DNA of 64,000 nt from Patescibacteria group bacterium (GCA_041670805.1 JBAXYM010000002.1:1309-65308); one strand, 5' to 3'; shown: positions 30,846 to 38,058, numbered from the stretch's first letter. A program made the numbers and translations. The notes: generated by a model from the sequence alone, not told the origin.

Positions 30846-31589
30846 ATGGAAATTTCCATCGCGGCAGAAACAGTCACTCATATATTGGGAATACCGGTTA
30901 CGAATTCCCTGCTGGCTTCGCTGCTCACCACGGTAGTGCTGGTAACCATAAGCTATTTTGCCACCAAAAATCTAAAGGAAGTCCCGAAAGGCATTCAAAA
31001 TATCATAGAGTACGCAGTCGAAAGTCTTTACAATATGATTCAGGACGTGACAAGAGACAAGAAAAAGACTTACAAGTTCTTTCCTTTCGTAGCCACGATT
31101 TTTTTGTTTGTGATGACTTCCAACTGGATGGGGCTTTTGCCGGGATTTTCCACGATAGGCGTCAAAGAAGAAACGGCGGGCGGACACGAGATTGTGGTCG
31201 GATTTTTCCGATCCGCCAACAGCGATCTCAATTCCACCATAGCGCTGGCGGTCGTTTCGGTGCTGTCAATCCAGATTATGGGAATTGCGATGTTAGGCTT
31301 TGCGAAATATGGCAAAAAGTTTATCAACTTGAGCTCCCCTATCGCTTTTTTCATCGGCATTCTGGAAATTATCAGCGAGGTTGCCAAGATGATTTCTTTT
31401 TCGTTCAGGCTTTTCGGAAATATATTCGCCGGCGAGGTTTTGCTTACCGTTATAATGACTATCGCGCCTTTCATTGCGCCGGTGCCGTTTTTCGCGCTGG
31501 AACTCTTCGTGGGAGCGATTCAGGCTTTGGTGTTCGCGATGCTCCTGCTCGTCTTTATGAATACGGCGACGATGTCGGAAGAGCACTAA
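30846..31589 (+). CDS. atpB: F0F1 ATP synthase subunit a.
   Basis: 247 aa polytopic protein with the conserved Arg in the penultimate helix (SFSFRLFGNIFAGE). Confidence 0.9.
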   Translation: MEISIAAETVTHILGIPVTNSLLASLLTTVVLVTISYFATKNLKEVPKGIQNIIEYAVESLYNMIQDVTRDKKKTYKFFPFVATIFLFVMTSNWMGLLPGFSTIGVKEETAGGHEIVVGFFRSANSDLNSTIALAVVSVLSIQIMGIAMLGFAKYGKKFINLSSPIAFFIGILEIISEVAKMISFSFRLFGNIFAGEVLLTVIMTIAPFIAPVPFFALELFVGAIQALVFAMLLLVFMNTATMSEEH

Positions 31590-31650
31590 ATCAAAAAACT
31601 AATAGATTTATATATAGTTTAAGTTAATTAATTTTATCAAAAGAAAAAAT

Positions 31651-31884
31651 ATGGAACTAACGAAAGAATCACTGCAGATCATTTTCGCGTCAGCAACAAT
31701 CGTCATCGGTGCTATCGCTCCGGCAATGGCTATTGGAAAAATCGGTACCGCCGGATTGGAAGCAATCGGACGCAACCCGGAAGCGGCCGGAGATGTAAAA
31801 GGAACTATGATCTTGGCAGTAGCTTTTGCGGAAGCAATCGCTATCTATGCTTTGGTGGTAGCTCTTATCATCAAGTTTGTATAA
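31651..31884 (+). CDS. atpE: F0F1 ATP synthase subunit c.
   Basis: 77-aa hairpin proteolipid with GAIAPAMAIGKIGTAG and the conserved carboxylate helix (AFAEAIAIYALVVALII). Confidence 0.9.
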   Translation: MELTKESLQIIFASATIVIGAIAPAMAIGKIGTAGLEAIGRNPEAAGDVKGTMILAVAFAEAIAIYALVVALIIKFV

Positions 31885-31984
31885 TAAACCGGGGCTTGTC
31901 CCCCTTTTATGTTAGAACATATATTTATGTTCTAAATAAGCGACAAACCGTTATTAATGAGCGAAGCGGAAATCTAATTGATGT

Positions 31985-32095
31985 CGTCCCGGAATTTGCG
32001 CAGCAAATATCCGGGATCCCCGACATGTAAGATAAAACTTTATTGGCTTAGTAGCGGGATTCCGGATATTTCGCAGTAGCGAAATTCCGGAATGA
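31985..32095. repeat. Family-B hairpin pair inside the atpE-atpF spacer.
   Basis: TGTCGTCCCGGAATTTGCGCAGCAAATATCCGGGATCCCC...GGGATTCCGGATATTTCGCAGTAGCGAAATTCCGGAATGACA. Confidence 0.7.
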
Positions 32096-32152
32096 CACCT
32101 TTTTTGTCGCTGATTCGGAATATAAAAATTAATAATTTAAAAGATAAAGACT

Positions 32153-32653
32153 ATGGCATCGGAGATATTTAGCAAGCTGGGAATCAACGGGGCTCTTTTG
32201 ATTTCGCAAATTGTCAATTTCGTTCTTCTTATAATTCTTCTCAAAAAATACGCCTACGGTCCGGTTTTGAAGATACTCAACGACCGCGCGGAGAAAATCG
32301 AGAGGAGCCTCAAGGAAGCGAAAAAAATCGAAGAGGAGCTCAAGAACACCGAAGAAACCAAAGTGGCGGAGATAAGAAAAGCTAAGGAAGAAGCGGCGGA
32401 AATCGTCAAGAAGTCCTACGACGTTGCGCAGGCAAATGCCGAGAAAGCCATCGACGAAACTCGCAAGAAGACGCAGGAAATCGTTGCCAAGGCGAAGGAA
32501 GAAATTCAAGACGAAAAAGAAAAATCCGTAAAAGAAGCCGAGAAAGAAATCGCCGACTTGGCCATCCAAATTGCGGAGAAAATCATCCGCAAAAACTTGG
32601 ACGGCGCCGTCGAGAAAAAGCTGGCGGAAGAGACTTTGTCCAAGATAAAATAG
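32153..32653 (+). CDS. atpF: F0F1 ATP synthase subunit b.
   Basis: N-terminal TM followed by a long charged helix (EKIERSLKEAKKIEEEL...). Confidence 0.8.
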   Translation: MASEIFSKLGINGALLISQIVNFVLLIILLKKYAYGPVLKILNDRAEKIERSLKEAKKIEEELKNTEETKVAEIRKAKEEAAEIVKKSYDVAQANAEKAIDETRKKTQEIVAKAKEEIQDEKEKSVKEAEKEIADLAIQIAEKIIRKNLDGAVEKKLAEETLSKIK

Positions 32654-35680: not shown

Positions 35681-35756
35681 AATTAGGATATTTGTCTTTC
35701 TGTGGGGTTCCTCTTCCTCATAATAGGGGAATCCGATCAGGGAAATAAACCGCTAT

Positions 35757-35887
35757 TGTCATCTCGAAGGAGTACTCGACTGAGAGATCTGGGAATTGCA
35801 CGCAAACTGGAAAGGTTCAATATGAAGACTTAAACTTTTCGCCATTCCGTACATTCCCCAGATTTCTCAATCGGAGTACCTCATTTC
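35757..35887. mobile_element. Family-C MITE inside the atpG-atpD spacer.
   Basis: Same TIRs as 9184-9321 (TGTCATCTCGAAGGAGTACTCGACTGAGAGATCTGGGAA ... CCAGATTTCTCAATCGGAGTACCTCATTTCGAAATGACA). Confidence 0.8.
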
Positions 35888-36196
35888 GAAATGACAAATA
35901 GAAATTTGATTTCAATAAAGCACGTTAAAAATTTAGAGATTGAGTTTTGGAATAAAAAAGGAGGTGATAAAAATCACAGGCGAGCACATAAAAGAAACAA
36001 GGGAAGATTTAAAATTCAGGAGATTCTATTATAAAGACCTAGCTCTCCACAACGGAAAAACTGTTTTGGAAAAGCTAGAATATTTAATCAGATATTTTTT
36101 AAGTTTTTTCTAAAAAATCTTCCCCAACTTTTTTTCCAAAACCCAATTTCTAAATTAAAATTTTACACATACATTAAACACTTATAGATTAAAATT

Positions 36197-37573
36197 ATGA
36201 GCAAAGGAAGAATTGCACAGATCATCGGGACGGTAGTCGACATCGAATTTGAAGACCATCTGCCCGCCATATACAACGCACTAAAAACCAAAACTGCCGA
36301 CGGCAAAGACCTTATTTTGGAAACCACCCAGCACTTGGGTTCGGGACGCGTCCGCGCCATCGCTATGGATTCAACTGACGGATTGCAAAGAGACGCCGAG
36401 GTCGAAGACACCGGAGCCCCTATTTCCGTACCGGTGGGAGAAGAAGTTTTGGGACGTATGTTTGACGTGCTTGGAAACACCATCGACGGGAAAGAAGAAA
36501 AGAAATTTACAAAGAGAGCTTCCATTCACCGCGACGCTCCCGCCTTCACGGAACAGTCGACCAAGACCGAGATTTTTGAAACCGGAATAAAAGTAATCGA
36601 CCTCATCGCTCCTTTTACAAAGGGAGGAAAGGTCGGACTTTTCGGCGGCGCAGGCGTGGGGAAAACCGTTCTGATTCAGGAACTTATCCGCAACATCGCC
36701 AGCGAGCACGGAGGATACTCGGTGTTTGCGGGAGTTGGAGAAAGAACCCGTGAAGGAAACGATCTTTATCACGAAATGAAAGACTCGGGAGTGCTGACAA
36801 AGACCGCTTTGGTATTCGGACAGATGAATGAAGTCCCGGGCGCAAGACAGCGCGTTGCGCTTTCCGGACTTACCATGGCGGAAAATTTCCGCGACGAGAT
36901 GGGAAAAGATGTTCTGCTTTTTATTGACAATATTTTCCGATTCACCCAGGCCGGTTCCGAAGTGTCCGCACTTTTGGGACGTATGCCTTCCGCAGTGGGA
37001 TACCAGCCGACCTTGGCGCAAGAAATGGGCGAACTGCAAGAACGCATCACCTCCACCAAGAAAGGTTCCATCACCTCCGTGCAGGCTGTATATGTGCCTG
37101 CGGATGACCTTACTGACCCGGCGCCGGCTACGACTTTCGCGCACTTGGATTCGACCGTTTCACTTTCTCGCGCGCTGACCGAGATCGGAATCTATCCGGC
37201 CGTCGATCCTCTGGACTCGACTTCTACGGTTATGGATCCGCTCGTTATCGGAAAAGATCATTACGAGGTTGCCCGAGGAGTGCAAAAAGTTTTGCAGAAA
37301 TACAGAGATTTGCAGGATATCATCGCCATCCTTGGCATGGAAGAGCTTTCCGAAGAAGACAAAATTATCGTGGCGCGCGCCCGCAAGATTCAGAAATTCC
37401 TTTCCCAACCGATGTTCGTTGCGGAAGCATATACCGGAACTCCGGGACAATACGTACCGCTCAGCGAGACCATCCGCGGCTTTAAAGAAATTTTGGAAGG
37501 CAAGCACGACAGCAAGAACGAAAACGCTTTCTATATGAAAGGTTCTATCGACCAAGTCGAGGAAGCTAAATAA
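36197..37573 (+). CDS. atpD: F0F1 ATP synthase subunit beta.
   Basis: [10 protein letters not shown]-loop and DELSEED-like region (EELSEEDK). Confidence 0.95.
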
Positions 37574-37635
37574 TTTGGAACCTGCCTCTGTCGTTTGCGA
37601 GGAACAATGACGAATATAGAGTTTAAAATAAAATT

Positions 37636-38058
37636 ATGAAAATAGATTTACAAGTAGTCACTCCGGAAAAAATCGCCTTTGAGGGAGAAATCGATCAAAT
37701 CTCGCTTCCGACCAAGAATGGACAGATTACCATACTGCCCAAACATATTTCTTTGGTGAGCACCGTTAAGAGCGGCGAGCTCGTTATCAAAAACGGCGAA
37801 GAAGAAATCTTGATGGCGGTTTATGGCGGCTTTGTGGAAGTACGAAAAAATCAAGTACGGGTTATGACCGATGTCGCGGAAAGGGTGGATGAGATTGACG
37901 AAGAAAAAGCACAGAGGGCTCGCGACGAGGCGCAAAGAAAACTCCAAGAAAAAGACCGGATGGACGATGTTGACTTCGCCGACGCGGTAAGGCAACTGGA
38001 AAAATCTTTGGCTCTGCTGAAAGCCGTCAAGAACATAAAGCGAAGAGGGATAAAATAA
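37636..38058 (+). CDS. atpC: F0F1 ATP synthase subunit epsilon.
   Basis: 140 aa with an N-terminal beta-sandwich and a C-terminal helical hairpin. It follows atpD in the operon. Confidence 0.85.
   Translation: MKIDLQVVTPEKIAFEGEIDQISLPTKNGQITILPKHISLVSTVKSGELVIKNGEEEILMAVYGGFVEVRKNQVRVMTDVAERVDEIDEEKAQRARDEAQRKLQEKDRMDDVDFADAVRQLEKSLALLKAVKNIKRRGIK

Follow-up and report, generated by a model that had tools for sequence, protein, structure and literature searches.

Why are the spacers of a bacterial ATP synthase operon so long, and do the repeats that fill them do anything for the operon? The question is raised by the atpBEFHAGDC operon (positions 30846-38058, plus strand) of a Patescibacteria group bacterium, which lies in a stretch of 64,000 nucleotides (GCA_041670805.1 JBAXYM010000002.1:1309-65308) that we refer to as the window. 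An original prediction, made from this DNA alone, had reported that all eight genes are present in canonical order, that the atpE-atpF, atpA-atpG and atpG-atpD spacers (E-F, A-G and G-D below) measure 268, 169 and 516 nt, and that each contains a repeat. These observations are confirmed: Pfam recovers the complete operon in canonical order, the lengths were identical on rechecking, and a blastn search of each spacer against the whole window shows that every one holds a member of a dispersed family. The interpretation that accompanied them is partly supported. The explanation that we favour, with a probability of about 0.78, is that selfish insertions resembling repetitive extragenic palindromes (REPs), REP doublets that form hairpins (REPINs) and MITEs (miniature inverted-repeat transposable elements) have enlarged three of the atp spacers and are tolerated there.

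The evidence for insertion comes from related genomes. A protein search recovered the operon of 10 relatives, whose AtpG proteins are 69-87% identical to that of the window; contig scans with AtpG gave only 33-41% identity among the matches listed. The atp gene order is identical in all 10. The lengths of the spacers, in nt and in the order E-F / A-G / G-D, are given here.

window: 268 / 169 / 516
L084: 267 / 159 / 547
L085: 221 / 159 / ~1141
L088: 203 / ~180 / 501
L087: 228 / 28 / 331
L171: 227 / 28 / 337
L089: - / 28 / 423
L086: 126 / 28 / 52
L173: 145 / 33 / 50
L090: 133 / 25 / 29
L172: 130 / 9 / 29

The last four relatives have compact, repeat-free spacers of 126-145 nt (E-F), 9-33 nt (A-G) and 29-52 nt (G-D). 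A comparison with the atp operons of relatives was the check proposed by the original prediction and its outcome favours insertion: given the short spacers of the compact relatives, the extra DNA of the window was inserted. A tree built on AtpG, AtpD, AtpC and PrmC joins the pair of the window and L084 with the pair of L085 and L088 in one solid clade, unites L087 and L171 in another, and places L090 and L172 as the outgroup; the positions of L086, L173 and L089 are not settled by this tree. Only the clade that contains the window has a filled A-G spacer, and the elements in it differ: one end of a family E element in the window, a family C-type MITE of 159 nt in both L084 and L085, and a further, different element in L088 (the families are described below). 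A cross-genome blast finds the same repeat families at non-orthologous positions in relatives. Close relatives therefore show presence and absence at orthologous sites together with presence at non-orthologous sites, which is how mobile elements are recognised, and the relatives as a group look as expected of mobile elements that turn over. Insertion, dispersal and lineage specificity are shown for the elements, which have left the coding sequences untouched.

Could the spacers themselves be artefacts, in which repeats were mis-joined during metagenome assembly? The contig behind the window was indeed assembled from short metagenome reads, and repeats are known to lead to assembly errors. However, the assemblies of two other samples contain the same region over 3.1 and 4.6 kb with 99.7% identity and 0 indels, and sister species have elements in the same spacers. 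As independent assemblies agree to this extent without indels, the sequence is no assembly artefact, and we give this explanation next to no credence. The agreement between the three samples also means that the insertions are fixed in the population. An AtpG identical to that of the window lies on a 154.8-kb ENA metagenome contig and occurs in two further samples. A separate question of assembly concerns L085, where a truncation or pseudogene of atpA was considered and rejected, since positions ~7000-7100 of that locus are a 100-N scaffold gap within the gene.

The long spacers might alternatively be ancestral, with repeats that resemble each other incidentally. For A-G and G-D this is refuted by the spacer lengths of the four compact relatives, the outgroup among them, and the repeat matches reach E-values as low as 1e-28. 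What speaks for the idea is the E-F spacer, which is about 130 nt long and carries three conserved hairpins even in the compact relatives. As an account of all three spacers it is extremely improbable. The conserved hairpins of the E-F spacer are listed here.

31891-31908, plus strand: T1, a GC hairpin followed by a U-run, right after the atpE stop codon
31912-31935, plus strand: H2, an ancestral AU-rich hairpin (TTAGAACAT..ATGTTCTAA), -10.8 kcal/mol, z -4.9
31940-32110, plus strand: H3, a weak ancestral stem (GCGACAAA ... TTTGTCGC) whose loop now holds family B

T1 has the two features of an intrinsic terminator, a GC-rich hairpin and an immediate U-run on the sense strand. It is found in 10 of the 10 relatives with differing stem sequences, and a consensus terminator scan missed the copy in the window because its stem is only 4 bp long. 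Judged from these features, T1 would be the best candidate in the operon for a real attenuator or 3′-end stabiliser after the c-subunit gene, and its position would suit partial termination or 3′-end stabilisation at the gene of the most abundant subunit. H2 is single-copy in each genome and is likewise kept in all 10 relatives, with CAGAAC/GTTCTG as the outgroup version; the stems and loop lengths of both T1 and H2 vary among the relatives. A LexA operator (Cheo-box) was considered for H2 and rejected, as the spacing between GAAC and GTTC ranges from 6 to 12 nt among the relatives, as expected of a hairpin but not of a dimer site with fixed spacing. In the compact relatives H3 is a short stem between an A-run and a T-run, and in the expanded relatives its loop holds a family B hairpin. 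The presence of T1, H2 and H3 in compact relatives implies that the E-F spacer was about 130 nt long and structured before the insertion. The original description of this spacer as unusually long is thus right for about half of it, which is new, and overstated for the ancestral ~130 nt with the three conserved hairpins.

What has been inserted? The repeats in and around the operon are the following.

30565-30680, upstream of the atp promoter: family D, a REPIN-like palindrome of ~115 nt with GGAGTAGCA termini
31980-32097, E-F spacer: family B doublet, two inverted TGTCAT-tagged hairpins, REPIN-like
34609-34654, plus strand, A-G spacer: family E, a single TGTCAT-tagged end that begins 6 nt past the atpA stop codon
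35691-35749, plus strand, G-D spacer: hairpin F, degenerate and TGTC-tagged, just past the atpG stop codon, -22.6 kcal/mol, z -2.4
35756-35900, G-D spacer: family C, a MITE of ~145 nt with ~45-nt terminal inverted repeats beginning TGTCATCTCGAAGG

The two hairpins of family B (31986-32017 and 32056-32096) are each ~40 nt long, with predicted folding energies of -23.2 and -21.5 kcal/mol. Eight further copies are found in the window (E-values 1e-17 to 7e-6), which makes nine loci, some of them doublets. Family C has the properties of a MITE, being shorter than ~300 nt, non-coding, bounded by terminal inverted repeats and present in four copies in the window (the three further ones with E-values of 2e-26 to 4e-13), and more copies lie at non-orthologous sites in relatives; its predicted fold is -56.2 kcal/mol (z -6.7). 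This MITE had originally been placed at 35757-35887, and while the element is genuine, that end falls ~12 nt short of the actual one at 35900. Family D has five further copies, with E-values down to 1e-28, so that six lie in 64 kb, all of them palindromic doublets of ~110 nt; in the copies read, each half consists of GTAG followed by a hairpin of the GCAGGC-TTTA-GCCTGC type with a 6-bp stem, and the predicted fold is -64.6 kcal/mol (z -7.5). Family E has one other copy in the window (54097-54141, E-value 1e-5) and a related copy in the G-D spacer of L089. The remainder of the A-G spacer (34655-34777) consists of unique sequence together with ~20 nt that belonged to the ancestral spacer. Hairpin F is orthologous in L085 and L088, and two compensatory pairs are seen across the three orthologues; the similarity of the counterpart in L084 was judged by eye only.

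The terminal tag TGTCATYYYGRA is common to families B, C and E and has 19 occurrences in the window where 0.22 would be expected, and because of this shared tag we regard the three as one super-family. Predicted folds range from -21 to -65 kcal/mol for B, C, D and hairpin F, and the whole E-F and G-D spacers have z-scores of -7.1 and -8.7. The z-scores of family E (+0.56) and of the whole A-G spacer (-0.27) are no better than those of shuffles, so the stable hairpins that had been attributed to the operon are borne out for families B and C, as well as for D outside it, and not for family E.

How do these repeats relate to known elements? The REP and REPIN sequences of Proteobacteria are GTAG-tagged palindromes that are thought to be mobilised by REP-associated tyrosine transposases, or RAYTs (PMC3733652, PMC3116915). 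The repeats described here share with them short palindromic units with a fixed unpaired tag at one end, the frequent pairing of units in inverted orientation to form a larger hairpin, the coexistence of several families in a genome and an intergenic location, mostly between co-directional genes and downstream of open reading frames (ORFs). Dispersed intergenic copies and inverted doublets are numerous, e.g. the six copies of family D and the nine loci of family B. Only family D combines the inverted doublets with the GTAG tag (GGAGTAGCA followed by GCAGGC-TTTA-GCCTGC), whereas B, C and E are tagged with TGTCAT, which differs from both GTAG and CGTC. Further differences are the Patescibacteria host and that no RAYT gene is seen in the 64-kb window.

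Family C has the size and shape of the Correia elements of Neisseria (Neisseria miniature insertion sequences, NEMIS), which are MITEs of ~100-150 nt with long terminal inverted repeats. Correia elements insert inside operons and are co-transcribed; family C also lies in an operon, where it would be co-transcribed. The two differ in that there is no sequence relation between them and no evident TA target duplication in family C. RNase III cleavage, an integration host factor (IHF) site and outward promoters have been demonstrated for Correia elements, and enterobacterial repetitive intergenic consensus (ERIC) sequences have measured effects on the stability of upstream or downstream mRNA segments (PMC10969869). 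ERIC sequences, also called intergenic repeat units (IRUs), are like the present repeats transcribed palindromes between the genes of an operon. The same is true of the REP sequence at malE-malF in Escherichia coli, for which an effect on mRNA stability has been measured. This effect is the one that was originally proposed for the atp repeats; it was measured in those systems, and here it is deduced from predicted folds. The Geobacter uraniireducens MITE Chunjie, according to the account of PMC2516098 given in PMC10969869, inserted into an operon and left the operon structure unbroken. On that account Chunjie is a single recent insertion, and here several families show turnover across sister species. 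The atp case is therefore an ordinary kind of event and an instance of known element types, set apart by its host phylum, by the TGTCAT tag and by how densely the elements occur. A literature search found no paper treating MITEs or REPs in the candidate phyla radiation (CPR), to which the Patescibacteria belong.

We propose the following course of events. The host, whose close AtpG homologues their sources assign to Paceibacterota, Pacebacteria or Patescibacteria, is an uncultivated Paceibacteria-type member of the Patescibacteria, with an intact F1Fo operon behind a conserved promoter of apparent sigma-70 type. Between atpE and atpF, the loop of the pre-existing weak hairpin H3 received the family B doublet; the single TGTCAT-tagged end of family E landed 6 nt past the atpA stop codon, and hairpin F and the 145-nt family C MITE after the stop codon of atpG, which suggests that positions just after stop codons and the loop of a hairpin are permissive landing sites. 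The elements were presumably moved in trans, with the transposase gene at another place in the genome. They have spread to nearly all of the longer intergenic regions and turn over between close relatives. They are probably co-transcribed with the operon, and to go by the predicted folds their RNA hairpins may at most serve as incidental 3′-end, stability or RNase-processing sites, layered on the older attenuator-like hairpin after atpE. The elements are likely to be dispensable for the function of the operon, since the relatives with compact spacers do without them, and they would persist because coding sequences and essential signals stay unbroken.

Some of our results weigh against this explanation. 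No transposase or RAYT was found among the ORFs of the 64-kb window by Pfam scans, and the 17-kb loci of the relatives likewise contain no transposase. The flanks of the four family C copies of the window show no consistent target-site duplication. Finally, several lineages have family B in the E-F spacer and hairpin F at orthologous sites, where a few changes are compensatory, and this would also fit some selection on structure.

These last observations are the starting point for a different reading, that the hairpins are domesticated regulators which process, stabilise or attenuate the mRNA and so tune the ratios of the subunits. They lie where the stoichiometry changes, after c, alpha and gamma. 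The family B hairpin of the E-F spacer has kept its site in the window, L085, L088 and L087, with a C-G to U-A change; in the three orthologues of hairpin F, besides the two compensatory pairs, several U.G pairs work on the sense strand only. The predicted folds are strong and there is precedent in the RNase III cleavage of Correia elements and in the RNase E site that ERIC sequences expose (PMC10969869). However, the compact relatives do without the elements, sister lineages have different elements in the same spacer, and the same families occur in almost every long spacer regardless of the flanking genes. Family E has no stable fold, and at the boundaries between a and c and between delta and alpha there is no member of the families; at the atpD-atpC boundary there are ~40 extra nt, unrepeated and in the window only. 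Taking both sides together we think that domestication is improbable, and tolerated selfish insertion is the reading that we carry forward.

The G-D spacer needs a further comment, as its structure is composite. Hairpin F and the family C MITE are followed by a small-ORF cassette (35930-36156), with these features.

35930-35956, plus strand: 5′ arm of the cassette, a 27-nt inverted repeat (AATTTAGAGATTGAGTTTTGGAA)
35960-35964, plus strand: GGAGG ribosome-binding site, followed by a small ORF that ends with the residues SFF at 36113
36130-36156, plus strand: 3′ arm of the cassette (TTCCAAAACCCAATTTCTAAATT), the inverted repeat of the 5′ arm
36157-36196, plus strand: ancestral proximal spacer before atpD, with a promoter-like TTTACA-17-TAGATT, common to L086 and L173

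About half of the spacer is thus non-repeat, an older and clade-restricted cassette. The original prediction was correct that the 516-nt spacer contains a MITE; the MITE does not account for the whole of it, as ~230 nt belong to the conserved cassette. The cassette is single-copy and is found in 7 of the 11 genomes, the window included; L086, L173 and the outgroup lack it. Homologous small ORFs of 41-95 amino acids (aa) occupy the same place in six relatives and share a C-terminal third that ends in TFF or SFF. L085 and L088 differ at 21, 16 and 40 sites in the first, second and third codon position, a coding signature, and the small ORF is real in several relatives, where it is easily missed. 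In the window and L084 there is no ATG at the correct distance from the ribosome-binding site; the best-placed possible start of the window is an ATC at 35973. Across the seven genomes the mean pairwise identity is 84% for the 5′ arm and 89% for the 3′ arm, and 50% for the interior. The coding DNA of atpD (80%) and atpG (74%) is below both arms, and this conservation argues that the arms do something. The arms pair in 90.5% of cells, with no covariation measure above shuffles, and their mismatches are split so evenly between the G.U type and the A.C type that they do not point to one strand. Searches with the small ORF against Pfam and the sequences of the Protein Data Bank (PDB) gave no match; its AlphaFold model, of medium confidence (pLDDT 70.6, pTM 0.37), gave nothing with an E-value below 1 in a Foldseek search of the PDB, and an exhaustive HMMER search of 1.84 billion proteins returned only the clade's own six representatives. 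An invertible element (inverton) was considered for the cassette and rejected, because the orientation is the same in seven species and in the 13 contigs that carry the ORF of one species, as judged from assemblies only.

Does the cassette add a clade-specific function to the operon? It could code for a new small protein, associated with the ATP synthase or regulatory. Alternatively, it might form a double-stranded RNA stem, processed by an RNase III-type enzyme, or provide an internal promoter, in either case separating atpBEFHAG from atpDC. The operon is split at the same point in cyanobacteria. In favour of a function are the arms, which are better conserved than the neighbouring genes and pair in 90.5% of cells across the seven genomes, a GGAGG-like ribosome-binding site kept in the relatives read, the codon-position signature, and a single-copy cassette in sense orientation in 13 of 13 contigs. 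Its absence from L086, L173 and the outgroup, the fast evolution and variable length of the ORF, the missing ATG in the window and L084, the arm covariation at the level of shuffles and the lack of a family or fold match all point the other way. On balance a functional addition is a tentative possibility that we consider rather unlikely, and the cassette is the one unexplained item in the operon. In addition, the TGTCAT hairpins could join the GTAG and CGTC types as a third super-family of REPs, served by a so far unrecognised transposase. The wider proposal, that the cassette is a functional addition to the operon, that the TGTCAT hairpins form a third super-family, or both, is doubtful in our view; if the super-family is real, it would have expanded within a lineage of supposedly streamlined CPR genomes.

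The atp operon is not alone in hosting these elements. Accounts of CPR genomes usually stress their small size and dense packing. The window departs from this picture: on a rough gene map, ~19% of it is intergenic, and two fifths of the intergenic DNA consists of dispersed hairpin repeats (repeated bases make up 42% of intergenic and 2% of genic sequence). Of the 27 intergenic regions that exceed 200 nt, 26 contain repeats. Upstream of the atp operon lies a co-directional glycolysis cluster (7389-17557) with genes for cofactor-independent phosphoglycerate mutase (iPGM), enolase, phosphoglycerate kinase (PGK), glyceraldehyde-3-phosphate dehydrogenase (GAPDH) and triosephosphate isomerase (TIM), whose spacers of 270-630 nt contain the same repeat families and are colonised at least as heavily. 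The idea that tolerance in the atp operon is notable in itself is not supported by this comparison; with repeats in nearly all long spacers, it is part of a genome-wide state. What the atp operon does offer is a case in which an operon that is both essential and stoichiometrically balanced took up repeats and stayed unbroken. The four compact relatives and the seven expanded genomes, the window included, form a natural before-and-after series with different elements at the same sites, and this series could be used to measure the effect of transcribed palindromes on operon expression. There is also a lesson for annotation, as repeats generate spurious ORFs: those of 80-118 aa that span repeat copies (9057-9329, 29321-29677, 39442-39708 and 53905-54147) are probably spurious and would be mis-annotated as hypothetical proteins.

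The genes and promoter motifs of the operon are listed here.

30777-30805, plus strand: atp promoter, TTGACT-17-TAGAAT
30758-30730, minus strand: divergent promoter-like TTGACA-17-TATGCT with TG, which points at the gene 29898-30284
30846-31589, plus strand: atpB, subunit a (PF00119, E-value 1.5e-45)
31651-31884, plus strand: atpE, subunit c (PF00137, E-value 1.1e-14)
32153-32653, plus strand: atpF, subunit b (PF00430)
32660-33046, plus strand: atpH, delta, short at 128 aa (PF00213, profile positions 60-171 only)
33076-34608, plus strand: atpA, alpha (PF00006, PF00306, PF02874)
34778-35680, plus strand: atpG, gamma (PF00231, E-value 1.5e-85)
36197-37573, plus strand: atpD, beta (PF00006 and others)
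37636-38058, plus strand: atpC, epsilon (PF02823, PF00401)

All eight ORFs are intact, with 0 internal stops; the original prediction had named a non-functional copy of the operon as a reason for doubt. The prmC gene follows 9 nt downstream of atpC. AtpH is not a full-length delta subunit (the oligomycin sensitivity-conferring protein, OSCP); it covers positions 60-171 of the 172-position OSCP profile, and a large part of the N-terminal domain seems to be absent. Since AtpH is 128-130 aa long in all relatives, the short delta looks like a trait of the clade and no defect of the copy in the window. The predicted atp promoter is present and conserved, with TTGACT invariant in the seven aligned genomes and a -10 box of TAGAAT in six of the seven and TAAAAT in L088. 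The divergent promoter-like motif is kept in six of seven relatives, and family D sits in its path. The family D palindrome itself is real, although it lies upstream of the atp promoter and not in the leader, where it had been placed. In the atpD-atpC spacer (37574-37635), 62 nt long in the window against 18-40 nt in relatives (mostly 22-23), the extra ~40 nt fall outside every repeat family found. Rfam gave 0 matches in the window at the gathering score and 0 at an E-value of 1 or less across the operon, and no tRNA genes were found in the window.

Beyond the operon, two copies of family D (48175-48286 and 49046-49159) overlap both ends of lgt (48277-49086), and one of these lies 4 nt from the stop codon of a uvrC-like gene. 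A second iPGM paralogue is found at 60190-61758. The commonest repeat of the window is absent from the atp operon. It is a palindrome of ~105 nt built on GGATCACACCAGAAATGGTGTGAAC, with up to ~30 self-blast matches at single positions and copies at 15028-15132, 7161-7239, 9072-9175, 16580-16683, 55906-56006, 61842-61945 and other sites. A small hairpin family, GAGCAGGTTTAAACCTGCTCCC, forms local clusters (29583-29604, 29707-29728 and 29790-29811; 52842-52863 and 52962-52983) and also occurs in the relatives L084, L085 and L087.

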